64,000 nt of DNA, from positions 32,001 to 96,000 of the IMG/VR virus record IMGVR_UViG_3300019757_000164. One strand, written 5' to 3'. Below, in pieces: positions 2,723 through 52,972 of this stretch. The position numbers and the translations under genes were made by a program. Origin of the DNA: a virus. The notes beneath the pieces were generated by a model. That model was given only the letters and a program-made list of their open reading frames with translations, had not been told where the DNA came from and did no database searches. Each line of letters begins with the position of its first letter. Within the stretch, counting starts at the first letter, position 1.

Positions 2723-3709
2723 TTAAAATATCTCTCTAATATCCTGCATTTTACTATTTTCCTTCATTTGTAAATAGAATTTTCTAGTTGTTGATATATC
2801 AGAGTGTCCTAATATCTTAGAAGCCATTTCTAATTCAACACCTGCATCCATGAGTCTCTCTACCAATAACTTGCGAAAGCAATGTGGAATTATTTCATTA
2901 AAACCAGTCTCTTCTCTTGCATCATTTATTAGCCTTCTGATATATGCTACACTTCTAAAGTCTCCAGAAGCCTTATATCTATCGGTTGTAAATAAATATT
3001 CGCTATTTCCTCTTCTTTCTCCTGACTCCAAGTAGTCATCTATTGCTTTTTCAACATCTTTGAATAGTGTGACTATTCTTTGCTTAGAGTCACCACGACC
3101 TTTCCCCAAAACTTTTATCAAACCCTGATCTTTATACTCTAGATAATTCTTAATTTTGAATGTAGACACTTCGTTAATCCTCAAACCTTCATAAAAAATC
3201 AACATAGCAATGGCTTTGTTTTGCTTTGGCGTGCCTCTGTCTGAGTTTTGAATTGCATCGATGACCGCTTTCCCCTCTTCTTGTGAGTAATACACTTTAT
3301 GCTTTTGTTCAAATGGATAGTCTACATTTCCACTAATTGGGTTCGTATCGATATGTCCATATTTAACTAAATATTTCATAAATGAGCCAATATTAGCAAC
3401 ATATTTTCTTAATGAAGCATTCTTATATCCATTAGGTGCTCCATCATGACCCGGTGAACTTAACCAATCAACATATTGCTGTGCAACTAGACCTTTCATT
3501 GATCTTATATTCGACACTTTCATCATTTTAATTCTATTTTTAGTCATATACCAGTTGAAAAATCTATTTATAGACTTGTTTTCTTCTTTAATAGTCGTGA
3601 TTTTACATCTTTTCTTTACTTGGTTCATTTCATAGTCTAGCATTAATTCTGCTAATTGATCACTAACTCCATCAAACTTTAATAATTCCTTCAATTCTTG
3701 CTTTTTCAT
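2723..3709 (-). CDS. tyrosine recombinase/integrase (XerC/D-like)
   Basis: Catalytic residues present: GLRINE (R), GKG (K), HCFRK (HxxR), LGHSDISTT (H), FY (Y); N-terminal core-binding-like region; 328 aa. Confidence 0.93.
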   Translation of the reverse strand: MKKQELKELLKFDGVSDQLAELMLDYEMNQVKKRCKITTIKEENKSINRFFNWYMTKNRIKMMKVSNIRSMKGLVAQQYVDWLSSPGHDGAPNGYKNASLRKYVANIGSFMKYLVKYGHIDTNPISGNVDYPFEQKHKVYYSQEEGKAVIDAIQNSDRGTPKQNKAIAMLIFYEGLRINEVSTFKIKNYLEYKDQGLIKVLGKGRGDSKQRIVTLFKDVEKAIDDYLESGERRGNSEYLFTTDRYKASGDFRSVAYIRRLINDAREETGFNEIIPHCFRKLLVERLMDAGVELEMASKILGHSDISTTRKFYLQMKENSKMQDIREIF

Positions 3710-3742: not shown

Positions 3743-3771
3743 AATTATAACAAAAAGAAAAGAGCATTACA
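3743..3771 (-). promoter_or_regulatory. sigmaA-type promoter of the recombinase
   Basis: Minus strand TTGTAA-N17-TATAAT with TG extension, preceded by the AATAAAAAAACTTT upstream motif. Confidence 0.6.
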
Positions 3772-4463
3772 ACCCTTTTCTCAAAGTTTTTTTATTTATT
3801 TTCCCTATTTCTATTTTCCATATTCATTGCCCATCCAAACAGTATCATTGCCGGAATAAGTAGTGGGTTTATGATCCACAATAAAACCAATGAAATAGCA
3901 TACACTATAAATACCAAAGTTTCTCTTCTCATATTTATTCCTCCTTTGTAATATCTATCATTCTTTCTTCGTTGTTTAAATCAAATAATTCATTAACATA
4001 GAATTCAGACTCAAAATAATCATATCCATATCCTTCTACATCGGCAATCATTGCTCTTGCCCTAGTCTTATTTATAGCTTTTACTACCCACTGTTTATTG
4101 CTAATTAAACATTCTACGAGATAAACTTTATTCCTCATATAGCACCCTATTCCTCCAATCTGTTTAATCCATATGAATTTATAACTTTGCTACAACTTTC
4201 AAACTTTTCGATTATATTCGTGAGTTCATGCCTCAAATGATTTAGTAACTGTGATTCATTCTCATAACTATCGCATTCTGAATCCCACAAGAAAATATTA
4301 CTGCCAAAAATATGCAATCCTATGTACTGTACTGCTGTGCTATCGGTTAAATAGAAGCAGATTTCATCAGTTATTTCCCATAATTCATAATTCAATTGAT
4401 CTACAATATTTTGAATTTCCATTTTAAATCCTCCTTTTACTTTTATATATTTTCAATATCCAA

Positions 4464-11960: not shown

Positions 11961-12041
11961 CACTATTTCCAACACTTACGGTACTATGTATGCATAATTG
12001 TAAATTATACACACAATAGACTCAAAGCGTTGATTACTTCT
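11961..12041. repeat. palindromic recombination-like site 8 (core 11987-12015, spacer TTGTAAA)
   Basis: CACTATTTCCAA-N14-TGTATGCATAA-TTGTAAA-TTATACACACA-N14-TTGATTAC. Confidence 0.9.
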
Positions 12042-12636
12042 CAATAATGATAAATTCACCATCAAGTGTATTTGAAACAATAATTGGGTAATTTACGTGT
12101 AATTCACTTTTGCAAGCCGATCTTACTGCATTGATGATAGCCTCTCTTTTATCGTCACAGTCATCATTATATTGATTCATGTATCCAATTGAATACTCCT
12201 CACCACTTCCAATACACGCAAAATCATCAACTTCTGTAACAGAACCATCAAAACACACATTGAATAGTTTGTCTTTATGTGCAAATAATACATTACTATC
12301 TAGCATATACCCATCCTGATCTTTGATTTTATTTGATGTTTGATATTCCTTTGCTACGCTGAATAGCTTTGGAACTACATTTTTCACCATATCTTTAAAG
12401 TCAAACTTTCCTTTTAATCTAGTTAACTCATTTATAAAACTATCTTGAACCTTTAAAGCATTCTGGTATTTTAGACTGCCAACGATACCGACAAGTGTAT
12501 TTGGCTCATCTTTTGGTTTCATTATTTTATAATTATTCATATTGGTTAGCGTGCTTTTATTCCACCCTCTACTTACTTGGCTATCACACGCCATCCACAC
12601 TCTATCTTCATCTTTAATTGCTACTACTACACTCAT
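12034..12636 (-). CDS. proteasome-beta/HslV-like Ntn hydrolase
   Basis: N-terminus (M)SVVVAI...MACDSQVS and CIGSGEEYS resemble the Ntn-hydrolase TT....DS and (A)IGSG motifs. Confidence 0.7.
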   Translation of the reverse strand: MSVVVAIKDEDRVWMACDSQVSRGWNKSTLTNMNNYKIMKPKDEPNTLVGIVGSLKYQNALKVQDSFINELTRLKGKFDFKDMVKNVVPKLFSVAKEYQTSNKIKDQDGYMLDSNVLFAHKDKLFNVCFDGSVTEVDDFACIGSGEEYSIGYMNQYNDDCDDKREAIINAVRSACKSELHVNYPIIVSNTLDGEFIIIEK

Positions 12637-15522: not shown

Positions 15523-17181
15523 TATTCCACAATCGGCGTTACAGTCACTTCCATTTCTAACCCAACAATTGTGTCATGGTTACATTCGAATACTAAATCT
15601 ATTTTTCTTTCTATTTTACCACATTCACCGTATCCAACACAGCTAAAATATTCATTTCTTATTGTGAACTCTTTAGATATGATTAAATCTTGGTCATTTG
15701 AATAAATATAATGTTTATCTTCGTAGTCATCCCAATTATATTTAACATTTACATTCCATTTTCTGACTTTTTCTTTATCAGATTTTGTTAATTTGTCTAA
15801 CACGTATGCATACACTCTTGATGCTTCACCGTCTGAGATAGTTACATATGTACCACACAACCCTCTCACATCTATCATTATCTATTCTCCTTTCGATTTA
15901 TCATTATCCTTTATCTCTTTTAAGATATCAGACAAGTATGTAATTATTCCAAATCCAGTTACACTAATCATCATAATAGTCCAAAATTCTCCAGTTGTAA
16001 ATCTATCACAACCGAAGTATCCGATTCCAATAAATACCATGTAAAATAAAATCATTCCTCTAAACATATCTATTCTCCTTTCAATTCTAATCCTAAGTAC
16101 TCTCTACCTTCATTCAACTCTATTCTAAATCTATCTTTCTTATAAACCTGCAATGTGTTCATCTCAGATATTAAGAATTTCACAACTCTAAGATCAAAAC
16201 TAATATCTTCTACATTTCTAAAGAAATCATATCGATTAGTCATAAAATCTCTCACCGCATTCCTTCTTTTAAAGTTTGTTTCATCGATATCCATAAGCTT
16301 CTCGTACAATCTATATAGCCAGTATGATATAGTATTATCATTTATATCATCAATATTACAGCCAATAATACGTGCTACAATCACATAAATTGATTCTACG
16401 GTAGTTTCATATTTGTAACTTCTAAAGTGTCCCTTACAAGCCAAAATCAGTGCTTGCTCGTAGTCTTTTAATTTATATACATTCATATCTATTCTCCTCT
16501 CAATAATTTACTCAATAATTTTGGTGATCTTTTAAAATACATGATCAAATCTTCGTTAAATTTAACATCATTGTCTGTTTTCTGATCCCATAGCTCGATA
16601 TAATAAACATTATTATTTTCATCATTGTTACTTACTTTGAATAAAAACTCTGGAATAGTATGATGCTCTTTACAAATGGTATAGCATTGATAAGATATTT
16701 CTCCATCATATTCATATGGAGGGTTAGTAGACAGCATCGCAATTTCTCCACTATCCTTTAAAAATACAACCAATTTGTTTGGGTATGTTGTAAACTTTTG
16801 TAAATCCTTATTTAATCTTATACTTGTAAACGTATGCAATGTATTGTTATCTTTCATCTTTAACCTCCTCAAGTCGTTTTGTTTATTTCTAATACAATAA
16901 TAACAGAAAAAACCGCCCATTGCAAGCGATTTTTAAAAGTTTTTTATTTAATTATAAAGTAAACTCATCAGAATCGATTTGTACTGCAATAAATTTCTTT
17001 TCAATGATCCATAAATAACCTTCAGATGTTTTCAATCTATGAGTCGTATTGCTATTATAGAAGTGTGTCACCCCATTAATAGTCAATTTTGATCCATCTG
17101 AGTAATGATATACTCTTGATCTCTCAATGTGTTTAAGTTTTTGTAGTTCCATAAATACCTCTCTTTCTTATTTTCACTTTA

Positions 17182-17262
17182 TAGTAATACCAACACCTTA
17201 TCTCTAGTGTGTGCATATTTATTAGTTATCAACACAATCACCTCTAACCCTTGCAAATGCTA
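17182..17262. repeat. palindromic recombination-like site 12 (core 17208-17236, spacer TTATTAG)
   Basis: TAGTAATACCAA-N14-TGTGTGCATAT-TTATTAG-TTATCAACACA-N14-TTGCAAATGCTA; both outer arms present. Confidence 0.9.
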
Positions 17263-17340
17263 GATGGTGATATTTCTTAGGTAGTGCCCTCTAATGAGAA
17301 CAAGTTTACTAAGCTAGCCCCGCAGTCCCTACGGTTAATA
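17230..17340 (-). ncRNA. putative TnpB omegaRNA (reRNA) 3' scaffold
   Basis: Overlaps the tnpB 3' end: ACCGTAGGGACTGCGGGGCTAGCTTAGTAAACTT...CTAAGAA, then a terminal hairpin ATCACC-A-TCTAGC...GTTAGA-GGTGAT (17237-17271); position is as expected for IS200/IS605 omegaRNAs; boundaries approximate. Confidence 0.55.
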
Positions 17341-18412
17341 TATTCATACTTGCGTTTAGGTCACGGTCTATAGATAGACCACATTCTTCGCAATTATAAA
17401 CCCTTTCATTTAATGTTAATTTTTCTTTTACGTTTCCACACTTACTACAGGTTTTAGATGATGGATACCACCTATCAATTATAACTAACTCTTTCTCATA
17501 CCACAAACACTTGTACTCAAGTTGTCTTCTGAACTCTCCAAAGCTTGCATCACTTATAGATTTTGCCAAACAGTGGTTCTTTTTCATGCCATCTGCGTTC
17601 AAGTCTTCTATAACAATTGCATCATAATTATTTACTAAGTAATCAGTCACTGAATGTATATATGAAAACCTACAATTAGCAATCTTTTCATGAATTCTAG
17701 CAACTTTTACACGTTGTTTCTCTCTGTTTTTTGAGCCTTTTTTCATTTTAGAGAATTTACGCTGTGCTTTAGATAATTTTTCTTCGTATTTTCTATAATA
17801 TTTTGGATTTTCAAATATAACTCCATCACTCAAAGTGGCAAATTCTTTTATTCCTAAATCTACGCCAACCTTTTTATTAGTCTTAGGCTTGGGTTTCACC
17901 TCGACCTCACAACACAGGTTGGCAAAATATTTACCACTTCTTGTCTTGACGACTGTTACATTATTTATTTTCATGTTATTAGAAAACACAAATGATTGTC
18001 TAAACTTTACATATCCCATTTTAGGCAACTGAACTCTATTATTGTTGAATTTTACTGATCTGCCACTCACCCTATAAGACCACTTTGCTCTGTGTTTTGA
18101 TTTAAACTTCGGAAATCCTCGACTGTGCTTGAAAAAGTTTTTATAAGCAATATCTAAGTCCTTCAGTGCATTTTGACATACAGCAGAATCTATGTCGTAC
18201 AACCAATTATTTTCTTTCTTGAAGTCAACCAACTCAGATGAGTCTCTGTAATAATTACTGTTCTGACCATAGTATTCATATTCTTTGATTCTTATATCTA
18301 GGAAATTATTAAATACAAATCGGCTTGCTCCAATTGATCTATTTATATTCAATTCTTGTGTCTTATTTGGGTATATTCTTAATTTATAAGTTTTGTTTAC
18401 TATGCATACCAC
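17309..18412 (-). CDS. tnpB: RNA-guided endonuclease TnpB (IS200/IS605 family), no TnpA in the window
   Basis: N-terminal YKLRIYPN HTH; RuvC-I GVDLG, RuvC-II IEDL, zinc finger CSKC..CEEC, RuvC-III DRDLNAS; catalytic D-E-D intact. Confidence 0.95.
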   Translation of the reverse strand: MVCIVNKTYKLRIYPNKTQELNINRSIGASRFVFNNFLDIRIKEYEYYGQNSNYYRDSSELVDFKKENNWLYDIDSAVCQNALKDLDIAYKNFFKHSRGFPKFKSKHRAKWSYRVSGRSVKFNNNRVQLPKMGYVKFRQSFVFSNNMKINNVTVVKTRSGKYFANLCCEVEVKPKPKTNKKVGVDLGIKEFATLSDGVIFENPKYYRKYEEKLSKAQRKFSKMKKGSKNREKQRVKVARIHEKIANCRFSYIHSVTDYLVNNYDAIVIEDLNADGMKKNHCLAKSISDASFGEFRRQLEYKCLWYEKELVIIDRWYPSSKTCSKCGNVKEKLTLNERVYNCEECGLSIDRDLNASMNILTVGTAGLA

Positions 18413-18420
18413 CTCCTTTG

Positions 18421-18480
18421 TGTTATTTCATTTCACATTGTAATCATAATGTTCTATTATACATACAATAGCTTAAACTA
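18421..18480. repeat. palindromic recombination-like site 13 (core 18439-18467, spacer TGTTCTA)
   Basis: TGTAATCATAA-TGTTCTA-TTATACATACA, immediately upstream of the tnpB RBS; outer arm degenerate. Confidence 0.8.
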
Positions 18481-20734: not shown

Positions 20735-22779
20735 CATTACTTACTTTCCCACATCAGATGCTCACACCAATTATATTCATCTTCTTTTCCACCAACTGAC
20801 CAACTTGGATATGTATACATATCACTGAAACATTCATTTTTGTTTGTGATCAATACCTCTTTGTTATATGAGCTGATTTTTATAAGTGCATCTTCAATGA
20901 TAATCCTGTCTGACAGTCTACATATAAAATTCATAAATTCCTTAAATGTTTCTTCAAATTCTCTGTCACGTAATGAGCCGTCTACAACTAGTATATACTG
21001 GTCTTGAGTTCTCAACCATCCACCTCTTCTATTGTTGTTGCCATACCAATCTAATAGGTTGTCTGTTCTCCATCCATACTCATCGAATGATGAACTACTA
21101 TTGAATCCATCCTTCTGTATTACATATTTACTCATGTCTTTCTCACTTCCAGTAACTAGAGGTAAGTGATTTAACACAGTATCTAAGATATATCTTTTTT
21201 CAGCCTGTGTTCTGCCCATTGGCGATAATGTTATTGTTCCGTTTACATAAGTCCAAGCACTCATTTCAATTCTCCTTTCATAGTTAACTTTCTATCTAAG
21301 ACAAGTATATACTAAAATAGAGCCAATGTAAAGCCCTATTTAAAAGTTTTTTATTTAATTATATTAATTGTCATTTTTCATAACTTCTCTCCAAGTATCT
21401 CTATTTGAAAAGTATTCTTTTAAGAATTCCATGAATTCTTCTTTGTCAATTTTATCTCCATATCCTTCTACAAAATCTTCGATATCTTCAAAGAACATAG
21501 TCTCATAACTTTGCTGTTGAGCACTATTGATTTCAGATATATACACATTTTTATCATATGTGCTCTTACTTAGTTTACCATTTGTACACTCATATGCAAT
21601 GCTTGAAATTGTGTCGTGACAATTGTATAAGAAGAACGCAAGCATTAATTGTTGCTCATCTTTATCATATACCCCATAAAATTCTTCCATGTGCTCAATT
21701 TGATCGCTCAGATACTCTTTCATATCCTCTTTTGATTCTAAAAACTTATCAATTCCTTTTTTATACACGGCTTACTCCTTTCGCATACTCGCAGTATTCA
21801 TCCCATGTCATATCTAAATATTCATTAATAGGTAGACATGAATCAGATTTATGCCATTCTTCAATTTTCTTTTCGATTTCTTCATCTCTGCTGTTCAATA
21901 CTTCATTTTTATATTTTTCTAGTAAAAAACCGTTTGAAAAAGTATTCATATTTCCTCCTTTGTTTTGTATAGATTTACTTGCATAAAATTATATCCAATT
22001 TTACCATCTTGTCTTGGGCAAAGATTCTTTTTTCTAAAGTTGAAATGAATAAAATTAGTTGTAGCATCATCTATATCATGGTAATATGGACACCCTCTTG
22101 AATATATACAGAATGATAAATCACATCTAAATCTATCTTCTATATTATCAGACATCATATCTTGATAGTTTTTAGTTTCTTTCGTATAGTATTTTGGTTT
22201 AAACATATTGCCTCCATTTTTTTTATTTCAACAATCCCTCGTATCTAATCATTTAGCCCTACTTAATACAATATTAATTTAAATAACTTTGATCCTTCAA
22301 TATGTTTACTTGCCACATTTCTAATGCAATCCATTTCGATCCATCTTGTGATATAAGAATTGATTCCTCATCTTCAAACAAATGACAATCATTATCTCCA
22401 TCAATCCAAATTCCTTTTCCCTTAGAAATTGCAAATTCTACATTGTGTAGATCAATAAACTCAACAACCTCAGATGGTGTTTCATTATCTTTGTTTAAAT
22501 AACTCTCTAATTCCTCATAAGTAATAACTAAATATTTCATATAAACCTCCTTATATAATTCATTCACAATTTTCATGCCAAACTACTTGTCCACTCATAT
22601 GTGTAAAATATTCCTCTTCAGAGCCATCTTTGATCTCTTTTTGGCATCTATCACCTAGGAAAACGAATGTTTTAGTCAATACAATTTCTCCAGTTTTGTA
22701 TTCGTAGCAGTCATAAGATATGTGGTGATATATCCATTCTTTTATTTTAGAAATAAATTTAACCATATAATTCCTCCTT

Positions 22780-24685: not shown

Positions 24686-25870
24686 TCACTTATATGCACT
24701 ACTGTCAATACCTAATCTAACTTGAGTGTCTTTGCGTCTTTTGTCTCTTAAAAACTTATATTCTTCGAGATATTCAAAAAAGTCGTTCTCTGTATTTATT
24801 GTATCCGGTAGATCATACTCTATTAGTTGCTTGTTGTAATTTTTAAAAAATATCTTTTCGGCAATTAAGCGTATTTCTAATGCATCTACAAATTCTGAGT
24901 ACTGTCCCAAGTATATCGTTTTCCCGTCTTTTTTTATTCTAGATCTATACACCGTACTCCCCTTGCTTTTATGCACCGATACGCCTGGGTGCCCGCTAGA
25001 ATTATTAGATTGAATTCTTTTGTTCATTCCATTTTGCGAAGGGGTCACCTCTCTTAAATTACATCTCCTATTGTCGGATTTATCTCCATTAATGTGATCT
25101 ACATAATTACCTCCTTCTGTGGTCAATATTATTTTGTGCAATCTAAGATTCTTCACATTGCCATCAACTCTTCTAGTAGTGTGCAAATAACCATCGTCAC
25201 CCAAAACCCAAGTAAACCCTTTTGCTTTTACATAATCTACTTTATCTATGAAAAAAGTATCGGCGTTACTTGTGTATCCCATTATAAAATCACCTTTCTC
25301 CTCATACCTGTTACCTTTTATTTCAAATAGCCCTGTTCGGCACCCACACGTCTTTATATGACCATTTTTTATCTCTGTAAGCCTAATATCTTTTTCTTTC
25401 CCACAGTCACATATACATTTTGCTACTGTACACCTGTTGTCTATATCTTTATAAACGTCTAATATTTTAAGTGCGCCATACTTGTTACCTATTTCTTCGG
25501 ATGCCTTCTTTAAATATATATCTCTGTTTTTATCGGTTCTGATCTCATTTGTCCTATACTCATTATGCCAATCACTCAAGTTGCTCGATCTTTTTTTAAT
25601 ATTTTCTGGGTCTAGTCCTGCACACCTAAGTGAGCAATATTTAGTAAAACCAAGTGTTAAGTTTTTAAAGGTTTTATCTTTCCCACAAATTTTACACCTT
25701 CCGTCATCTTTGTGGTTGATAAATTCTATATAGTATTCTTTTTTCGAAATATATGGATGAGATTTTGTAATATGTAAGGACAAGCCTTGTATCTTAGTAA
25801 ATGATTTCCCGCATATTTTACATACATATGTTACTTTGTTATCCATTCTGGCTCCTTTCTTTTCTTCCAA
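24686..25870 (-). CDS. HNH homing endonuclease with C2H2 zinc finger and AP2-like C-terminal domain
   Basis: CKICGKSF..LSLHITKSH; VDHINGDKSDNRRCNL...QNGMN; SGHPGV...YRSRI...YLGQY. Confidence 0.9.
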   Translation of the reverse strand: MEEKKGARMDNKVTYVCKICGKSFTKIQGLSLHITKSHPYISKKEYYIEFINHKDDGRCKICGKDKTFKNLTLGFTKYCSLRCAGLDPENIKKRSSNLSDWHNEYRTNEIRTDKNRDIYLKKASEEIGNKYGALKILDVYKDIDNRCTVAKCICDCGKEKDIRLTEIKNGHIKTCGCRTGLFEIKGNRYEEKGDFIMGYTSNADTFFIDKVDYVKAKGFTWVLGDDGYLHTTRRVDGNVKNLRLHKIILTTEGGNYVDHINGDKSDNRRCNLREVTPSQNGMNKRIQSNNSSGHPGVSVHKSKGSTVYRSRIKKDGKTIYLGQYSEFVDALEIRLIAEKIFFKNYNKQLIEYDLPDTINTENDFFEYLEEYKFLRDKRRKDTQVRLGIDSSAYK

Positions 25871-26660: not shown

Positions 26661-27449
26661 ACATTTATACGTCTATTCTATTTTCTACTTGTATTTAATT
26701 TGGTATACCAGATAAAATTGAATACATATGCATATTATTGAAATAACAGACAACATAAAAATAGATAGCACATATAGTTTTAAAAATGCATAGATTACTG
26801 CAAATGTAAAACACATACAACTTCCTATTAGAGAAAGCAGTTTAATTGTCCTAGGCGTGTTTTTATTAATCTTCATTTAATCCTCCTTTCCAAATAGCTT
26901 AAACAACACTTCTAATTCTACCTCTGAGCGTTCATATTCAGTTACTAGTGTATTAGATACCATTTCATCTAAGACTCCGTCATAGTCTACCATAGTAGAT
27001 TTTACTATTTTACCTTTATTTAATGTATATTTATAATACATTTAATTCACCTCCTTAGAAATATGATTTTGGTATAATTAATTCAGTTATATATCCTTCT
27101 TCTATTAATTCTTGTGTATCACCTATTCTAATCTTTCCAAACTTGATAATATTTGGTGATGGTTCGACTAATATAGTATTTTTATATAATCTGTTAATAC
27201 CATCATATGAAAACTCTTTAACAACTTTGAATACTTTTATATCATGCAATTTCACTACCTCCTGTTCAAGTATATGCTTATTTTATCATAGTTGAATATT
27301 CGTGTCAATAATTATTTTACTCTTTTTTAGTTGTTTTTCTATTAGTTTTATAGCTTTTTATGCTATTTATTGATTATTTTACTGTTTTTTATCTTTTTTC
27401 TATTATAAAGGAAGAAAGTTGATTTTTTAAATTATTTTCAGAAAAAGTG

Positions 27450-27478
27450 TTGACATTGATTTTGTATGTGATATACTT
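27450..27478 (+). promoter_or_regulatory. strong sigmaA-type early promoter
   Basis: TTGACA-N17-TATACT with TG extension; near-identical layouts at about 28046 and 30488. Confidence 0.75.
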
Positions 27479-28118
27479 GTATTAACAAATGGCAAACAGC
27501 CAAACAAGATATGACTTTAGGAGGTCTAATTATGACACCGTTTATGTATCAATGTTACATTTATAATGTTAGTGATGGAAGTGATAAGTGGTTAGCTGTA
27601 AATAAGGATACAATGAGAAAAGCTAACAGAGCTTATGAAGATTTAAAGAAAGTATTAAACCAAGGATATTATATTAGCAAACCAAAGAAAGTGGGAGTAT
27701 TATAATGAAAATGAATTCAACTTACAACCAAGAAGAACAATTATTAAACAGCTATAACTATGATATGGCTCAGCTTCATCAAGATAAGAACAAGCATGAG
27801 AATCGTATTAGCAATAGAAAACGTGATCAAGTTAAAAGAGAGCTGAGAAAGAATAAGAAAAATAGAAATAAATGGAATTAATCTATAACCAAATTTAATA
27901 TGAAGGGTGGTGATATAAATGTTGATCTTATGTATTCTAGGCATAATTACATTCCCTGTGATATATGCTAGATTATATGTAATAAGATTAGAGAAGAGAG
28001 CTTAGGCTCTTTTTAACTTTTTATAAAAAAGTTTACAAAAAAGTATTGACTTATTATTTCGTTGTGATATACTTATATTAAGTTAAAGGAAATTAATAAA
28101 TGATCTGAGGAGGTCAAT

Positions 28119-29693: not shown

Positions 29694-31366
29694 TTTATTT
29701 CCTTTCTTATATAATAGTAATTGACGTAACTATATCTAATAGACTATGTTTGGTTTTCATGTTAATATATTTAGTTGTCATTTATATGTTGTCCCCCTTT
29801 CTGATGTAGCGTAGACATAGTACGTTCAACTTAATAATACCATATTTAAATAGTTATTGTCAAACATTTTACCATTCTAAATATTTATAGCTAGTATAGA
29901 ATTTATTTATGGTTGTTTTAAATTAATTAGTAAATTATGCTTGACATTATTCTATAAATAGTATATCATTATAAATGTAAAGAGGAACTAACTATTAAAG
30001 GAGATTATTATGAAGAAAATTATTAATAAAGACGGAACTATCACATTAAATTTAACTTCAAAAGAATTGGAAATGTTGGATATTGGATTAGGTAGCATGA
30101 TTGGTGATTTAGCTTATACTATTGATAGTCCGTATACTGAAGATTGTATTGCAGAAGATGCGGAGAAAGAAATGAATGATTATATCAAATTAAGAGAACA
30201 ATTATAAGAAGTTAATAAAATACAAAAGGAGTAGATATGAATAAATGGTATGTACAAGTTACAGAAATCAAACATCAGAATAGATGGGCTAAATGTATTA
30301 TAGATTCAAATAATTCTATTGTACTAGAGATAGAATTTATGGATATAAAAATAGCAAATAGTATTGTTAATACTCACAATGATTCTGTAGAACTTTCTTA
30401 TGAGATAGGAATGAAGGAAGGCGTTAAAATAACAAAAGAAGTTTATGGAGATAAATAAATATTTTTTAAAAAAGTTTTGAAAAAGTGTTGACATTAATAT
30501 CATAGTATAGTATACTTAAGATAGTTAAAGGATAGCACTTAAAAAATGACTTGGAGGTCAATATGAAAAAGTATAATGATGAATATGGATTTATTAACAC
30601 AGAAGTATCAGAAGATTACAGAATTATTGCAAGTATGATGCTAGAAGAAGAATATAATACATACATGAGTAAATGGGGCTATTTACCTAAGAGATATAGA
30701 CTTGTAGTAGATAATGGCTGTGGATTAGCTTACACTGATAAATTTGAAACAATCGAAGAATTAAGAAAAGCAGTTAATAGGATTCAATTCATAACAGATG
30801 AAGAAAAAGAATTTTTGCTAAGATTAGAAGCCTAACAGCTTCTTTTTTTTTATTGTCTATTATACCTTTTGATTGATTCGTATGAGTAGTTATATAATAT
30901 CTGATGTATTAGTACTAGATATGATTATATGAGCTTACAGGGCTATATGATGGGATTAGGGTAAAGAACTTTATAAAAGTTTATATAAAAAAAGACTATT
31001 TAACGATAGTCTCTAATTGATCTAATATAGTTATAGTATCTGGATTGAATGAAGATATTATTTCTTTCTCATGACTAAAGTCTAGCAAAGTATCTATGTA
31101 TTCGTCTAATAATTCATAACCCATTGACTCGTACATCTCACCCTCTAACAATGAGTATCTATCCATATATAGTAATATAGATTGTGTTTATGATTATATT
31201 ATATATTAAGTTAGGTGTAATGTAAAGGATAAGTTTATATAATTTTATTTTAAATAAGTGTTGACATGGATATAATGAGTGTGATACAATAAGGTGATAG
31301 GTAAATTTGATAAACAGAAAGTGTTAAATGAAAAAAAAACAATGGATTTAAAGAAGGGAGTCACAC

Positions 31367-32038
31367 ATGAAGAGAGTACCACAGAACACAGATACATACA
31401 GAACTATAAATAAAGTATACAAGAGTCTAAAAGTAAATCAGGAAATTAAAAACTATAAAGAGTTTTGCAAGTTATTAGGTTTGAGTCCATCAAGTGGAAA
31501 TAGTAGAAATGGACATATAAGAACCTTTAACTATTTCTTTGAATATGAAAGAAAAGGACATGGCTATATAATAACAAAGATATATGACAAACCAATAGAG
31601 TACAATAGATACCATAAATCAGAGTATAAAAATGAAAGATATTGTTATGGTGATATAAATGATTACCTCGACACAAAAGGTATATATGCACTAATAAACA
31701 AAAGTGATATATACATAGGCAAAAGCTTTGATCTATATACTAGACTCTCTAATCACCTAGGAGAACACAGTAGTATACCTTATACTAGAGATATGCTTAT
31801 TAACGGCGGAATGTGTTATGTATTATTTGATTTGGGTATTGATGATGATTATCTGTTAAAAGAATGTGAGTCAATAGTAATAAACCATTATATAGATAAT
31901 ACCAATTTAAATGTAGTCAATAAAAGAAAGAACGTCAATAATAAGAAACAATCATTGAATAGATATATTACAGTATCCACAGAGGATTATGAGTTAGCTG
32001 TGAGTATACTGAAAGGTAATAATATAGAAGTACTGTAA
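31367..32038 (+). CDS. GIY-YIG nuclease-domain protein
   Basis: GIYALINKSDIYIGKS.DLYTRLSNH; N-terminal domain shared with ORF 32240. Confidence 0.75.
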   Translation: MKRVPQNTDTYRTINKVYKSLKVNQEIKNYKEFCKLLGLSPSSGNSRNGHIRTFNYFFEYERKGHGYIITKIYDKPIEYNRYHKSEYKNERYCYGDINDYLDTKGIYALINKSDIYIGKSFDLYTRLSNHLGEHSSIPYTRDMLINGGMCYVLFDLGIDDDYLLKECESIVINHYIDNTNLNVVNKRKNVNNKKQSLNRYITVSTEDYELAVSILKGNNIEVL

Positions 32039-36458: not shown

Positions 36459-37435
36459 AAATCTCCTTTCATAATTATATATAGCTCTCCTATCTATAGT
36501 ATACCACCGTTAAAAAGTAAAGTCAACACTTTATTTAAAGTTTTTTATTTCTATATTTTTAATAAATACACTTGCAAAGCCAAAACAATTATGTTATTAT
36601 TAAGTGAACAGCTTTAGAAAAGCTTGCAAATTAGATTAAGGAGGAATAAAATGTCAACAAAACTAAAGCAATTAAGAAAAGATGTAAGATATATACAGGG
36701 TAATTATGGAGAGATTTATGATTATTGTGGAGGATGGTGCAATAACGAAAGGTTTGATTGGCTGTTATTTAGAGATAATTCAGACAGTGCAGTAGAATAT
36801 CTATTAGAGTCATTGATAGATTTATACTTTACAAAAGGTTATGTTTCAAGCACCGGGTTTACAGTTTTGTTTAATGAAGGAGACAAGAAAGATAAAATAC
36901 TAATAAAAATAGCAGATAGATATGGATACGAGATATAATTAAGGAGGAAATAATGAATTACAAATTGTATATGAGGTATAGATTAGTAGATTTAAGCAAA
37001 GTTAGTGTAGCATCTATCGTAAGTATATTATTACACAATAAACACCAGATAGATCTATTTTATGAGATGCTTCCAACAAAAGAAGAGGCTATATGCTCAA
37101 TGATTAGAGAGTATGTTATATCGGATCGTGAGTCAATCAAGCTAATATCTGAATTCGAGTCAGATTTTAATATTAATAAAGGTGACACATACGATGGTAA
37201 AGAAATAAATGAGATAAAAGTAAATAAAGATGGTAAATCTGTAAATTTATATTGGGATTCGGGGCATACTGAAGTAATAAATCCAGATAGTGACGACATT
37301 GAACGAATCATTGATGAAGTTGAAAAGAATAGATATAAACCCAATTTTACTGTCGAAACACATAGACTTTTTAAAAAAGAAAAGAAATCATTGATTAAAA
37401 AGGTATTAGATAAAGTAAAGTAAAAGGAGGATTAA

Positions 37436-39219: not shown

Positions 39220-42200
39220 ATTATTCGTCCTCCTTAAAAATTAATATCTCATATTAGGTTCATCAGTTTAATCTAACTTAACACTATTCTTATCAAATCT
39301 AGTTATTTCTTGATTGTAGCACTTGTATGTACATCCGACAATAGCACCGTATTGATCATTATTAAGTTTATCATATTCCACTACAACCTCATCGTAATAC
39401 TTATCAAGAAACCCTTCAATAGTCGAGTCTTGGACATTTGATTTAATTTCGTTTACTAAAACTTTCATATTTCCTCCTTAATTTTAAATACTCTGTTTTT
39501 AACCCACTCTAACTCAACACTACTAAGTCTTAATTCACCTAGATTAATAAATGCTTCGTGTGATATGTCTACGCAATCATCTAAACTCATCTTAGTCAAA
39601 TGAGATACTTTTAATAATTCAACAGCATCATCTACTATTTTTATAAGTGACTGTGTTCTTCCTTTAAAATATTCCTCATATTCTTCTTGTGTACAATTAG
39701 ACCTATTTAAGTCTATTTCATCATACCATTCTCCAATTTCTACTTCCTGAGTATTAAATAATTTATAAAATACCCAATCTTTAGAGTCTAACAAATTCTC
39801 TAGTTCTTGATACGGATTATCACTTTCATGACTATAATAATATATCGTTGCTCTAGCTAATTTCATATTTTCCCTCCTCTTCTTGTCTACATTAACCTTT
39901 CACTTTATTATACAAGTTTATCTAATCAAAGTCAACACTTTTTATAAACTTTTTTATTTTTATTTTTTATACTTTATGCTTGCATATACTAATTAATTAT
40001 GTTATTATTAAGTATATAGGATAGCTTTAGAAAGGCTTGCAGAGTATAAAGGAGGTAATATGAGATTAAAAGTTTACGAGATTAAGAAAGAATATCAATT
40101 AGAATCAGAAAAAGTTAAAGAGTGGTTTGTAGCTCAAACTAAATATCAAGATAATTGGTGGAACACAAAATTGGTAGTTGCAAATTCAAAAGATGATGCA
40201 CTGTCAATCTACAAAGAAAGATATAAAATTTCATCAATTGGTGAATTATTTAGTGATGGATATTATTTTAGAGAAGTATACTCAAGAAAGAAAGCATATG
40301 TCATAGATGTTGATTTAAAAGTAAAAGAAGTTAATTATTCTATTGATGTACTCAAAGAGAGATTGCAAGCTGATGACTTTATGAAGTATTTTATAGCAAG
40401 AAATATTGAGTATACAGAGTTATTTGGAAAATAAGGAGGTATAAATGCAAAAAATGGAAATAATAAAATCATTGGTAGAAGATGACTTTTATAAACAAAT
40501 AAAAACTATTGTAGAGAATGAGAAAAAAGATATAATATCAATTTCTCATTGTATATCGATTTTTAATAATATCGGTGTGACATATTACAATGCGATTATA
40601 ATTTATAAGGAGATATAAATGAAGAGAGTAGTGGTAACTAAGTTTTTTAATAGTTTCAGAGATACAATTGGATTAACAGGCGTGATAACCATAGTAGATG
40701 AAAAGGAATTGATTAAGCTTGACACTTATCCAAACAGTGGTTATTTTCGGATAAGCCCAGACTGCTATGAAATAATAGAGATTAAGGATGCAATATGAAT
40801 AGAGAAATAGACTATGCAAATATATGTAAGTATGATAAAAAATATTATTCACATGGAATAAAATTAGAATCACCCTGTAGAATTGATATTATGTCTGAGG
40901 AAAGCATGACGAATTTTAAGTTTTGGACTGGTAGCATAGATAAAATATTTGATATATCAATAGAAGAACCACTCCCAACCGCTAAAAATCGTGGAGTGAT
41001 GTATGTAGTATTTTTAGATAAACACAAATTAAAAGATAGTGAAAATACTCAATGGATACAAATTTAACTGGTTAACGCCAGTTTTTTTATTGCAACAATT
41101 ACATTTTCTATAACATTACAAATGTTAAGGCAAATCTAAAGTATCAGGCTATATTAAACGAACCATTAAAGCGGGTACTTATAAATTTATGGTACTAATC
41201 TATAATGTGCATATTTTACACATATTAATATGCAGTTAAATAAAAAAGAGTGAAATTAATCACTCATTACTCTACATATTCAACTTTGACTTCCATACAT
41301 TCTCCACTTCCATCCAAGAAATTAACCCACAATTCTTCAAATTGACCTTTATATACTCTATCCATGTTGCACTCATAGTTTCTAATCAAGTATTTCTTTA
41401 ATTCTTCAACGGTATCAAATGTCTTGCTATCAACAATTAAGTCCTCATTCCACCCATTATCATCAACAATTGATAGTCTGAAGCCCGGAGATTTAAATCC
41501 GCATAGGTCATATAGCATTTTACAATTTTGATCATCTAAATTATTCATCAATAATTCTTTGATGCATTTTATATTGTCACTGTTTCTTTCGCCAAATTTT
41601 ATCAAATCATCTTTGTCATAGTCATTTAATTGTTCAAGCAATTCTGTAATCAAATCAAACATTCTATTTTTTAGTAAGAAAATAATAGTCTGCTCTGAAG
41701 TATAGTCGCTGTACAATTTAATAAACCCTTTTTCATACGCTTCTCTATAGTATTTCGTCTTGTACTCATCAACTTTATAGGTAGAACTAGATTCATACCC
41801 TTTATCTTTTGAGTGTTGAATTATATCACAAAATACAGGTCTGTCATCAATGTAGTTTTCTATAACGTATTCCATGAATTCATTTCTCATGGCAACATAA
41901 TTCTCATTCCCATAGCATAAGTCTAAGAATTTGTTTAGAATATAGTCTTTTACTATTCGATCTTTTTTGAGTGATTTCATTAAAGATTCTTCATTGTAAA
42001 ATATCTGATCAACATTAAAAGAGTATAGTTCATATTTATCTCTTCCGTAATTTTGCCAAGCTTTGTGCATACATACGGGATCGATTTTTAATACATACTC
42101 ATAATCAAAATCAATCTTGCCTTTTCTTGTGAAATCACTTACAGTCTCTTTGCTGGCATATAGATTAACCTCATCTCCACTATTAAGTTTCTGATGTAAA

Positions 42201-49554: not shown

Positions 49555-51012
49555 TTGATGGGCAAAAGTAATATAAATATAAAATATAAATGCTTGGGAG
49601 CCGGTTCTGGTAATGTAACTGGATCGGCTCACTTGTTAGAAATAAAAGTAAACAATAAATTGACTAGTATATTGTTAGATATGGGAGCAATTCAAGACGG
49701 CAAATTTTCAACAAAGCAATTGTTCGATATGAATAGGTGCGATTCAGATATGTCTGAAATTGATCATATTATTGCTTCACATGGGCACCTTGACCATATA
49801 ATGAACTTGTGTCAAGTACAAAGATTGGATTTTGATGGAAATATTTATATGACAGATATGACATTGAAGTTGTGTGAGCATATAACAGAAGATGGAATTA
49901 AGATACATGATAAAACTGTCGAGTATTTGAGTAAATCTGTTAAAAAAGGAAATATAACTCCGTATATGAATATGAGAAGTAGAGATTATTTCTTATCAAG
50001 AGTTAGAGCTTACGGCTATGAAAAATGGATAGTTATAAATGACAATATAAAATTTAAATTTATGGCATCTGGTCATATTAGTGGGAGTTCTATGATTTAT
50101 TTAGAAGTACAAGATGGATATGAAAAGCAGACAATATTATATACTGGTGACACATCATGCAATAGAGAAATTCCATTTACAATGAAGCCATCAATCAAAG
50201 GTATGAAAATTAATCATTTAATAACTGAATCAACCTACTCTCATGTACATATAGAACAAAGAACAGAAGATGTAATTGTAGAAGATTTGCATAGACTAAT
50301 AAAATCTACTTGTATAGAGAAGAAAGGCGATTTACTAATTCCTTCTTTTGCAATGGCGAGAAGCACGAATCTGGCTTACTACTTAAAGAAAACCTATGAG
50401 AAATATCCAGAGCTAAATCCTATTCAGATTTATATGGCTAGTCCGCTAATGAATAAGTGTCACAACACACTCGGTTCAGACAGTGATTTCTATGACGAAA
50501 AGTGGAAAGATGAAATGGATTTATTTGAGTGGGGTAAGATATCACAATTATCCGAATTTAAAGATGTTATGGCAGTATCTAGAAGAAGTGAACCTAAAGT
50601 ATGGATTTCCAGTTCGGGAATGGCTGATAAAGGCATCAATTCTTACTTAGTTTCTGAGATAGTCAAGTCTAGAAAGAATACTATTGTATTTGTTGGATAT
50701 TGTGCAGAAGGAACTACAGGTAGGAAGTTAATTGAAGGCAAACAGAAAACGATTACTTCTAATATAGATGGTGAAAAGAAAACTGTAGCCATTAGAGCGA
50801 GAGTTGAAAATCTAACTGGTATGTCAAGTCATGCAAGTGGTAAAGAAATCGTTGAAACACTAGAGACCGCTGAAAAGAAAAAGTTAAAAACAGTAATAGC
50901 TGTACACGGTGATAAAGATAGAACAGAATCAATGTGTGAGCTATTTCAAAATAAATACAAGCAAAATTTAAATACATATGCTCCAAGGATTGGACAGAGT
51001 ATAAAATTATAG
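49555..51012 (+). CDS. metallo-beta-lactamase / beta-CASP family nuclease
   Basis: SHGHLDH, SGHISGS, YTGD, ESTY, PSFAMAR, SSSGM, SSHA and VHGD motifs. Confidence 0.9.
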   Translation: MMGKSNINIKYKCLGAGSGNVTGSAHLLEIKVNNKLTSILLDMGAIQDGKFSTKQLFDMNRCDSDMSEIDHIIASHGHLDHIMNLCQVQRLDFDGNIYMTDMTLKLCEHITEDGIKIHDKTVEYLSKSVKKGNITPYMNMRSRDYFLSRVRAYGYEKWIVINDNIKFKFMASGHISGSSMIYLEVQDGYEKQTILYTGDTSCNREIPFTMKPSIKGMKINHLITESTYSHVHIEQRTEDVIVEDLHRLIKSTCIEKKGDLLIPSFAMARSTNLAYYLKKTYEKYPELNPIQIYMASPLMNKCHNTLGSDSDFYDEKWKDEMDLFEWGKISQLSEFKDVMAVSRRSEPKVWISSSGMADKGINSYLVSEIVKSRKNTIVFVGYCAEGTTGRKLIEGKQKTITSNIDGEKKTVAIRARVENLTGMSSHASGKEIVETLETAEKKKLKTVIAVHGDKDRTESMCELFQNKYKQNLNTYAPRIGQSIKL

Positions 51013-52360: not shown

Positions 52361-52972
52361 ATGAATAATTTTACTAGAAATACTGGGACATTGGATATCA
52401 ATGAGCTTGTGTCACAATTGAAAGAATCGGCTAATCCGGTTATGTATCAATACTTTAAAAATTTAGATGAGGGAAATCTGTTAATTAGTGGTGAAATTGA
52501 TGATTTAACTATTGAATACTTCATTATGCCATTAATGCAATTGGATGCTGATCCTAATGTAGAAGAAATTACTATCTACTTGAATTCACCGGGCGGTTCT
52601 ATCTTTACGGGAATGACCCTATGTGAGGCTATTGAGAGATTAAAAACTCCTACAAAGGTAGTATTACTCTCATATGCTTATTCAATGGGAGGATATATCT
52701 TAATGTCTGGATTCAGTAATCCTAATGTTAAGAGGGTGTGTTATCCATTTAGTACAGGCTTAATTCATCAAGGTAGTACTAGATTAGGTGGAAATAGTAA
52801 TGACGTAGAAGATACATATGAGTTTTATAAGAAATACAATGAGAAAATGAATCAATATATTTTAGACCATAGCAATATTCCAAGCGATGTATTGGATAAG
52901 CACAAAAGATTCGAGTGGTATTTAACTGCTGATGAAATGCTTGAGTATGGTTTAGTAGATGAGATTATTTAA
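52361..52972 (+). CDS. clpP: ClpP-family protease subunit
   Basis: YLNSPGGS, AYSMGG (catalytic S), LIHQ (H), WYLTADE..EYGLVDEI. Confidence 0.88.
   Translation: MNNFTRNTGTLDINELVSQLKESANPVMYQYFKNLDEGNLLISGEIDDLTIEYFIMPLMQLDADPNVEEITIYLNSPGGSIFTGMTLCEAIERLKTPTKVVLLSYAYSMGGYILMSGFSNPNVKRVCYPFSTGLIHQGSTRLGGNSNDVEDTYEFYKKYNEKMNQYILDHSNIPSDVLDKHKRFEWYLTADEMLEYGLVDEII

Follow-up and report, generated by a model that had tools for sequence, protein, structure and literature searches.

TnpB proteins are understood as helpers of their own transposons, and their guides derive from the DNA just beyond the omegaRNA scaffold. Intact IS605 elements are known, from the accounts in PMC10055086 and PMC10690162, to home to vacated donor sites by means of TnpB. 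The sections of Altae-Tran et al. (2023, PMC10691335) on recombinase-associated TnpBs describe genes that lie beside phage-integrase-like tyrosine recombinases and att-like inverted repeats, with the TnpB always inactivated. Phages carry free-standing homing endonuclease genes, for which the relevant parts of PMC13565253 describe intronless homing and marker exclusion, and T4-type phages have promoter/stem-loop (PeSL) cassettes (PMC2839356, PMC4122927), a repeated intergenic motif thought to mediate module shuffling. Here we describe a tnpB gene in a 64,000-nt stretch of viral DNA (the window), which comprises bases 32001-96000 of the 124,854-bp virus record IMGVR_UViG_3300019757_000164 (CheckV completeness 96%). 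The gene is bracketed by two copies of a phage repeat. We put at about an even chance the reading that an IS200/IS605-family tnpB, together with most of its omegaRNA scaffold, was captured as a single-gene module of a repeat-punctuated early region and thereby immobilised. For its Shine-Dalgarno sequence the gene relies on repeat copy 13, and at the canonical right end the final ~29 nt appear to have given way to, or merged with, the distal flank of copy 12. The parts of the module are as follows (window positions).

17309-18412, minus strand: tnpB, 367 codons (367 amino acids), RuvC triad and zinc finger intact, non-canonical start
18439-18467, no strand assigned: copy 13 core, 11-7-11 layout, 2 substitutions, 22.6 bits against a profile of 17 other copies
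18413-18438, minus strand: copy 13 proximal part with Shine-Dalgarno (AAAGGAGG), the left junction of the tnpB module, in a short layout like that of copies 14-16
17208-17236, no strand assigned: copy 12 core, whose tnpB-side arm, TGTGTTGATAA, has 2 deviations from the family consensus and contains TTGAT
17153-17207, minus strand: copy 12 proximal part, with a GTTGG..TATAAAGT motif and a Shine-Dalgarno sequence, which runs up to the next gene; profile positions 9-113 match at 39.8 bits

The TnpB product matched the Pfam families HTH_OrfB_IS605, OrfB_IS605 and Cas12f1-like_TNB (E = 7.7e-32, 2e-25 and 6.6e-14), and the domain order HTH - OrfB_IS605 (RuvC) - zinc-ribbon TNB was present. Against the NCBIfam model guided_TnpB it scored 368 bits (cut-off 100), and against IS200_TnpB 414.4 bits, slightly below the cut-off of 425. 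The RuvC residues D185, E269 and D351 and the zinc-finger residues C322, C325, C341 and C344 fell in invariant columns in alignments of 19 and of 9 sequences. A domesticated, nuclease-dead TnpB of the TldR type was ruled out by this conserved triad. The ORF (open reading frame) list, the alignments and the repeat search confirmed the claim of an earlier note on this DNA that a tnpB with intact RuvC residues is the lone gene between sites 12 and 13; it is the sole sizeable minus-strand ORF there and the sole tnpB copy in the record. At columns where the other 18 of the 19 aligned members agree, TnpB had no private substitution, and the 9-member alignment revealed two, both conservative (S to N, K to R), with several or most relatives having more. 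Because private substitutions at otherwise agreeing columns were few or none, the protein appears to be free of decay. The exact protein was found on 12 + 11 contigs and its neighbour proteins on 13-15, and the tnpB allele seems stable in the population.

These data bear on a rival explanation, that the locus is an inert relic: a recently stranded transposon fragment in the course of decay, with an omegaRNA lacking a working 3' end, a protein that is barely translated and a fortuitous terminal hairpin. We regard this as possible, if doubtful. The left end and TnpA are lost, tnpB is single-copy, and it starts at a damaged or unusual codon. GTG, the earliest start codon in frame, stands directly against the Shine-Dalgarno sequence; ATA, also in frame, follows that sequence by 6 nt, where relatives start; and the sole nearby ATG belongs to another frame, in which it begins an ORF of 7 codons. 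Set against decay, the 367 codons have stayed open despite the AT-rich genome, and TnpB has no private substitution of the kind found in several relatives at columns that are otherwise invariant.

The absence of a transposase, also claimed in the earlier note, was confirmed when a six-frame search of the whole 124.9-kb record for Y1 TnpA (PF01797) gave 0 matches, with the control matched in 6 of 14 genomes. The Y1 family was likewise absent among the 118 + 89 ORFs scanned, a set that leaves 4 ORFs crossing block borders outside it. That no left end of the insertion sequence is visible also proved correct. Only 26 nt, mostly Shine-Dalgarno sequence, separate the copy-13 core from the tnpB start, and a transposon left end with subterminal hairpin and preceding target motif was absent upstream of tnpB. 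Downstream of the tnpB stop we found neither of the right-end termini GGTTCA(A/G) and GTGTCAA, just the tail-like AAGGGTTAG.

We compared the locus with its relatives. Protein searches returned relatives at 82, 72, 71 and ~60% identity on short metagenome contigs, and the DNA comparison rests on 317 retrieved loci (2.0 Mb) at 31-50% identity; the best tnpB relative in viral contigs had 50% identity, and that in metagenome and genome scans 49% among the matches listed. The retrieved relatives are ordinary IS605/IS1341 elements. Those at 39-50% identity have on their left side a left end of at least 150 nt or tnpA, and the upstream 200 nt, read in 20 of the 155 extracted relative loci, held a tnpA 3' end or non-coding DNA resembling a left end. 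Left-end boundaries were fixed in multi-copy groups only, and right ends were likewise defined by such groups. In these groups similarity starts at TTGAT (B, C, G), TTGAA (D) or TTTAT (A), with a left-end hairpin next (A-D, G), and the right end stops directly after GGTTCA(A/G). The phage repeat occurred in 0 of the 317 loci (profile E <= 0.01; core pattern <= 3 mismatches). The check proposed in the earlier note, for other tnpB genes flanked by this repeat, thus found none in these loci, and the idea that the repeat travels with tnpB was rejected.

The relatives also define what a complete scaffold looks like. Their omegaRNA 3' module is the last 91 nt. Its four helices are helix 1, helix 2 with helix 3 nested inside it, and a terminal hairpin of 8 bp, after which comes an 8-nt tail; 21 of the module's 25 pairs show compensatory changes. 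Distinct right ends with a GTTCA tail had a GRAC loop, complementary to that tail, in helix 1 in 30/36 and a GACAC loop in 0/36, and those with a TGTCA tail (n = 31) had the GACAC loop in 18, one of them also GRAC. Because loop type and tail type co-occur, we infer that the helix-1 loop pairs with the scaffold tail. A covariance model of the module built from 21 relatives (R1) had a single match in the window, at 17335-17244 on the minus strand (53.4 bits, E 4e-11). It aligned helices 1-3 with high confidence to ~17272 and left unpaired the 19 nt due to form the terminal hairpin, and a target cut at 17270 still scored 44.3 bits. The 3' end here comprises three features.

17272-17335, minus strand: helix 1 and the nested helices 2 and 3, the portion of the omegaRNA 3' module that is conserved, overlapping the last 9 tnpB codons
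17237-17271, minus strand: terminal hairpin, 12 bp with one bulge, formed by a 5' arm from the tnpB side and a 3' arm that consists of the distal flank motif of copy 12
17244-17252, minus strand: alternative remnant of the canonical tail in the R1 alignment, AAGGGTTAG against GAGGTTCAA/G, within the hairpin's loop and 3' arm

The minimum-energy fold of 17336-17229 gave the canonical layout, with helices 1-3 keeping all pairs. The hairpin at 17237-17271 folded at -12.9 kcal/mol (z = -3.99, equalled by 0/200 shuffles); it occupies the fourth-helix position, ends flush with the core, and is followed by 8 unpaired nt. Its 3' arm carries GTTAGA 6 nt from the core, at the position of GTTTGA in other copies. 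When the 37 nt upstream of all 20 repeat cores were folded, it was the strongest of these stretches (next -9.2 and -8.8), and the idea that every repeat copy bears an upstream hairpin like that of copy 12 was rejected. The description of the scaffold as running into a hairpin built partly from site 12 was therefore borne out, with scaffold to ~17272 and a 3' arm that is copy-12 flank, and the core that the earlier note quoted as following it on the minus strand matched exactly. For the relic explanation, these results point both ways: helices 1-3 keep every pair, and a hairpin with a z of -4 stands exactly at the fourth-helix place, flush with the core, but the final ~29 nt of the module are not of the canonical kind, the covariance-model register leaves the canonical terminal hairpin unformed, and the loop-tail match is weakened.

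At the gathering threshold Rfam had nothing in the window. The only match at the E-value threshold was a weak one on the minus strand of 17217-17340 to Ref70, 'Enterococcus sRNA 70' (24.4 bits, E 0.05, gathering score 115). The Ref70 consensus shares helix 1 and junction motifs of the omegaRNA module, and the Ref70 family itself may be a TnpB omegaRNA.

Every retrieved relative being an ordinary element, one could suppose that this locus is a further IS605/IS1341 insertion with canonical ends, which landed by chance between two repeats. The tail-like AAGGGTTAG at 17252-17244, which adds ~9 of the 53 bits (53.4 vs 44.3), speaks for this, as does the occurrence of TTGAT, a possible insertion target, in some repeat flanks. 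We nonetheless consider it highly improbable. It is largely refuted by the missing left end, there being 26 nt to the copy-13 core; moreover the canonical terminal hairpin and GGTTCA end are absent, and a complete repeat stands on each side rather than one split copy.

The repeat family was assembled from 33 core-pattern matches at <=6 substitutions, of which 20 were accepted and 13, without flanking motifs, were dropped by eye. All 20 copies are in one orientation, at genome positions 6,490-66,325; 17 of them fall within the window, with cores from 2256 to 34353, and numbering within the window gives copies 12 and 13, in agreement with the sites of the earlier note. On the minus (gene) strand a unit reads: upstream gene end; a weak GTTTGA motif and 5-6 nt; an 11-nt arm, a 7-nt spacer and an 11-nt arm; ~12 nt; then GTTGGAAATA..TATAAAGT in long units, for which copies 13-16 have a shorter version; AGGAGG; and the start codon. 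Each core bounds a module of one to several genes. The upstream gene stop is 6-33 nt from the core in 17/20 copies, as at copy 13 (10 nt), which is directly upstream of tnpB, and 72 nt from it at copy 12. Complete copies flank tnpB on both sides. The spacer differs among all 20 copies, the distal arm is nearly constant, and the arms form 5-10 of 11 Watson-Crick pairs per copy, making the core an imperfect 11-7-11 palindrome. Because the arms pair alike on both strands (171 vs 174 of 220), the core looks like a protein-binding site; a core acting as an RNA or single-strand hairpin was rejected on the same count. The exact 29-nt copy-12 core occurred once in the window vs 0 expected and had 0 matches in viral contigs.

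Side observations from one sequencing run, X14, concern the same region. One contig, ~86% identical (45 differences in 322 nt), spans 16604-16925, and others match up to 16953 and 16956 with unrelated sequence beyond. A further contig (window 19940-19980) shares 41 nt, the copy-14 proximal flank and one arm, and then has a different spacer and arm. Together these contigs hint at mosaic relatives in the same mats.

The record encodes a candidate enzyme for the repeats.

2723-3709, minus strand: Xer-like tyrosine recombinase gene, inside the repeat array (Pfam Phage_integrase, 3.6e-19)

The recombinase gene is 13.6 kb from tnpB. Its product matched NCBIfam XerA (3e-28) and XerC (5e-28) far below the equivalog cut-offs, its nearest solved structures are XerA, XerC-like, XerD and XerH, and a search for recombinase relatives in viral contigs found none. 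In the passage of PMC5357621 on site layout, Xer sites have 11-bp half-sites and a 6-8 bp centre. The repeat cores follow that rule, with two 11-bp half-sites of partial dyad symmetry and a 7-bp centre, and their inner arm bases GCATAA/TTATGC are the same as in the Acinetobacter Xer-site oligonucleotides of PMC7399989 (Table 1). This dif-like layout and the encoded Xer-like recombinase favour reading the repeats as recombinase sites. The unique spacers, the conserved one-sided ~45-nt flank beside the ribosome-binding site and a phage sigma factor would allow a reading as regulatory, PeSL-like units, and judging from sequence we give these two candidate readings roughly even odds. A sigma-70 promoter scan found 122 sites vs 116.3 ± 11.8 expected, that is, no enrichment, and did not single out the repeat units.

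The sigma factor is a full-length member of the sigma-70 family (regions 1.2, 2, 3 and 4) encoded at genome 6846-7685 on the minus strand, 24.3 kb left of the window start, and it could recognise the conserved gene-side motif of these units. Another repeat, distinct from the dif-like units, has a near-consensus TTGACA ... TATACT promoter layout (window 27423-27485, 28019-28081, 30462-30498 and 31235-31271). It sits where gene strands alternate, and its copies are likely early promoters for the host RNA polymerase.

On the capture reading, the left junction would lie at a short likeness between transposon and unit, the relatives' GAGGTG Shine-Dalgarno and the units' AGGAGG, and the right junction at another, the relatives' GGTTCAG tail and the units' GTTTGAG. 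Because both junctions fall at such short resemblances and complete units stand on both sides, a resident module would have been replaced through recombination in or near the units, and not by peel-and-paste insertion. One further gene bears on how the module would be expressed.

16952-17152, minus strand: downstream gene of 66 amino acids, transcribed in the same direction as tnpB and followed by a terminator-like hairpin at 16908-16934

Because a terminator is absent before 16934, upstream transcription would pass through tnpB and copy 12, and TnpB would excise the scaffold from this transcript. The 16-20 nt past the scaffold, within repeat 12 (17243-17209), would then become a fixed guide. 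Two registers are predicted.

17224-17243, minus strand: predicted 20-nt guide, register i (scaffold end 17244), drawn from the R1 alignment and comprising the proximal arm between 7 nt of flank and 2 nt of spacer
17209-17228, minus strand: predicted 20-nt guide, register ii (scaffold end 17229), made of 3 nt from the end of the proximal arm, all 7 nt of spacer and the distal arm

Register ii follows the rule that the relatives' right end lies 8 nt past the terminal hairpin, and structural grounds favour it over register i, though not strongly. Because both registers start the guide inside repeat unit 12, any guide that is made is predicted to be templated by repeat 12. The claim that the guide may be read from the site core therefore held in part: the guide falls inside repeat 12, and in register ii it consists of spacer and distal arm, but register i, from the R1 alignment, gives flank and proximal arm, which leaves membership of the spacer uncertain. 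Exact matches to either guide in the record were confined to the locus itself. The copy-12 proximal arm is the sole arm of the 20 that contains TTGAT, the motif that precedes the left end in groups B, C and G of the relatives, and here it is one base out of register with guide ii. On the minus strand of copy 12 (window 17232-17195), TTGAT, 13 nt and GCACAC also resemble the relatives' left-end start (TTGAT, 11-12 nt, GCACACTCG and hairpin). This likeness is probably a coincidence, because the left-end hairpin is absent and GCACAC is part of the repeat consensus.

Crossover by a tyrosine recombinase requires matching spacers. This fact bears on the full model of the earlier note, in which the repeats are Xer-like recombinase sites, tnpB is a recombinase-moved cassette, recombination reprograms a guide made of spacer and distal arm, and TnpB cuts empty sites for homing. 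The 11-7-11 layout, which fits the Xer sites of PMC5357621, the inner arm bases shared with PMC7399989 and the Xer-like recombinase gene within the array agree with it, and register ii yields the guide it proposed. We nevertheless find the full model improbable. The 20 spacers all differ, so copies 12 and 13 should not recombine together, and a crossover between equal spacers would leave the spacer as it was. That is, because the spacer would be unchanged and the distal arm is nearly identical in all copies, reprogramming would have little to act on, and we found no support for it. Cutting of empty-site alleles was unsupported as well. The hybrid empty site would have ATGTA or ATGCA where groups B, C and G have TTGAT; if TTGAT is the target motif, such a site would go uncut because ATGTA stands at the motif place. 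No empty allele was seen: a joint across tnpB was absent from 4 low-depth contig sets, which leave some parts uncovered and in which contigs drop rare variants, and only the tnpB allele was present. Register i, moreover, stays compatible with the covariance-model alignment, and the conserved one-sided flank near the ribosome-binding site, with the phage sigma factor, suggests regulation.

If the captured TnpB is active, its complex would be a free-standing RNA-guided nuclease, whose targets would be genomes with the copy-12 sequence beside a suitable target motif, i.e. related co-infecting phages. The outcome would be homing or exclusion, like that of classical phage homing endonucleases, and the guide would be set by position, not reprogrammed by a recombinase. 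We think it unlikely that the locus is this in full: an active transposase-less TnpB serving as a free-standing RNA-guided homing or exclusion nuclease, with a guide from an Xer-like site core such that the site-12 arm-spacer-arm is read by recombinase and nuclease alike, and with a last scaffold helix rebuilt from the site flank, tying the nuclease to its address.

Several observations weigh against the reading of a captured module. The canonical GTTCA tail is absent, both registers retaining GTT only, and the terminal hairpin may be normal for the subfamily at 60-82% identity, or may be due to chance. A canonical start codon at a workable Shine-Dalgarno distance is absent for tnpB. No matching target outside the locus was found in the record or in public phage or viral contig sets. 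Lastly, with a 9-nt tail instead of 8 the locus would read TTGAT followed by a perfect target, and the phage would cut itself.

The record comes from sequencing runs that are microbial-mat metagenomes, with no RNA run listed among the 16 that were found, and its gene content is of the large tailed phage type. A long minus-strand block encodes Pol III alpha, DnaB, a RecJ-like protein, NrdD, the sigma factor and many small ORFs, and a plus-strand block holds terminase, a ClpP-like protease and structural genes. Searched against 50,697 phage records (megablast, blastn), the locus had no close counterpart; the similarity seen was weak, at 60-80%, and confined to tnpB. Genes for HNH (with C2H2 fingers), GIY-YIG and HNH-repeat proteins (window 24686-25870, minus strand, and 31367-32038, plus strand; locus L321, 14838-15836) are candidates for classical free-standing homing endonucleases. 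Other genes of the window encode a proteasome-subunit-like protein (12034-12636, minus strand), a beta-CASP/RNase J-like protein (49555-51012, plus strand) and the ClpP-like protease (52361-52972, plus strand). A repeated terminator-like hairpin with a T-run closes some modules (3743-3800, 16896-16953, 21325-21365, 36494-36559 and 39903-39968); the scan scored 16908-16934.

In a keyword-level search of the open-access literature, by which absence is unproven, we found no description of an intact, end-less tnpB with a scaffold completed by a phage repeat. The TnpB exaptations known to us are CRISPR-Cas12 and nuclease-dead regulators. If our reading is true, an intact tnpB without means of transposition, perfectly conserved in a phage module and with its guide frozen on a phage intergenic repeat, would differ from both. 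It would be a natural half-way stage from the selfish nuclease of a transposon to a weapon or homing gene that belongs to the phage. The ~1.3-kb locus would also be a test object for how much of an omegaRNA 3' end foreign sequence can replace. If it is a relic only, it still documents the uptake of foreign genes by phage repeat arrays.

The locus shares features with each of the systems considered above. Like the PeSL cassettes, as PMC2839356 and PMC4122927 present them, the intergenic repeat stands on either side of single genes or small gene groups in a variable part of the phage genome; unlike them, it has a dif-like 11-7-11 core, an Xer-like recombinase is encoded, and a sigma-70-type promoter signal does not coincide with it. 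In Acinetobacter pdif modules, in the portion of PMC7399989 that concerns them, genes likewise lie between Xer-type sites whose inner arm bases are identical, whereas the phage units have a centre of 7 bp rather than 6, one orientation, unique spacers and a long one-sided flank, and their carrier is a phage and not a plasmid. With free-standing homing endonucleases, as treated in PMC13565253, the locus has in common a lone nuclease gene among conserved phage genes that could cut the allele of a co-infecting relative; the difference is that TnpB would choose its target by RNA, not by protein. The TnpBs in the cited sections of Altae-Tran et al. also stand beside inverted repeats resembling recombinase sites, with their recombinase gene nearby or absent, but the catalytic residues of the phage TnpB are conserved, its closest retrieved relatives include elements with tnpA directly upstream, and the recombinase is 13.6 kb off. 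Lastly, the protein family, the domain order and the intact RuvC triad are those of IS200/IS605 TnpB, including the tnpB-only IS1341 type, and a putative omegaRNA 3' module would overlap the gene end and draw its guide from the DNA just past the scaffold, as in those elements. In contrast to those elements, the phage locus is without TnpA, left end and canonical right-end terminus, is single-copy, and has a repeat on both sides; its guide would be fixed and within the repeat, not in an insertion-site flank that is separated from the target motif.

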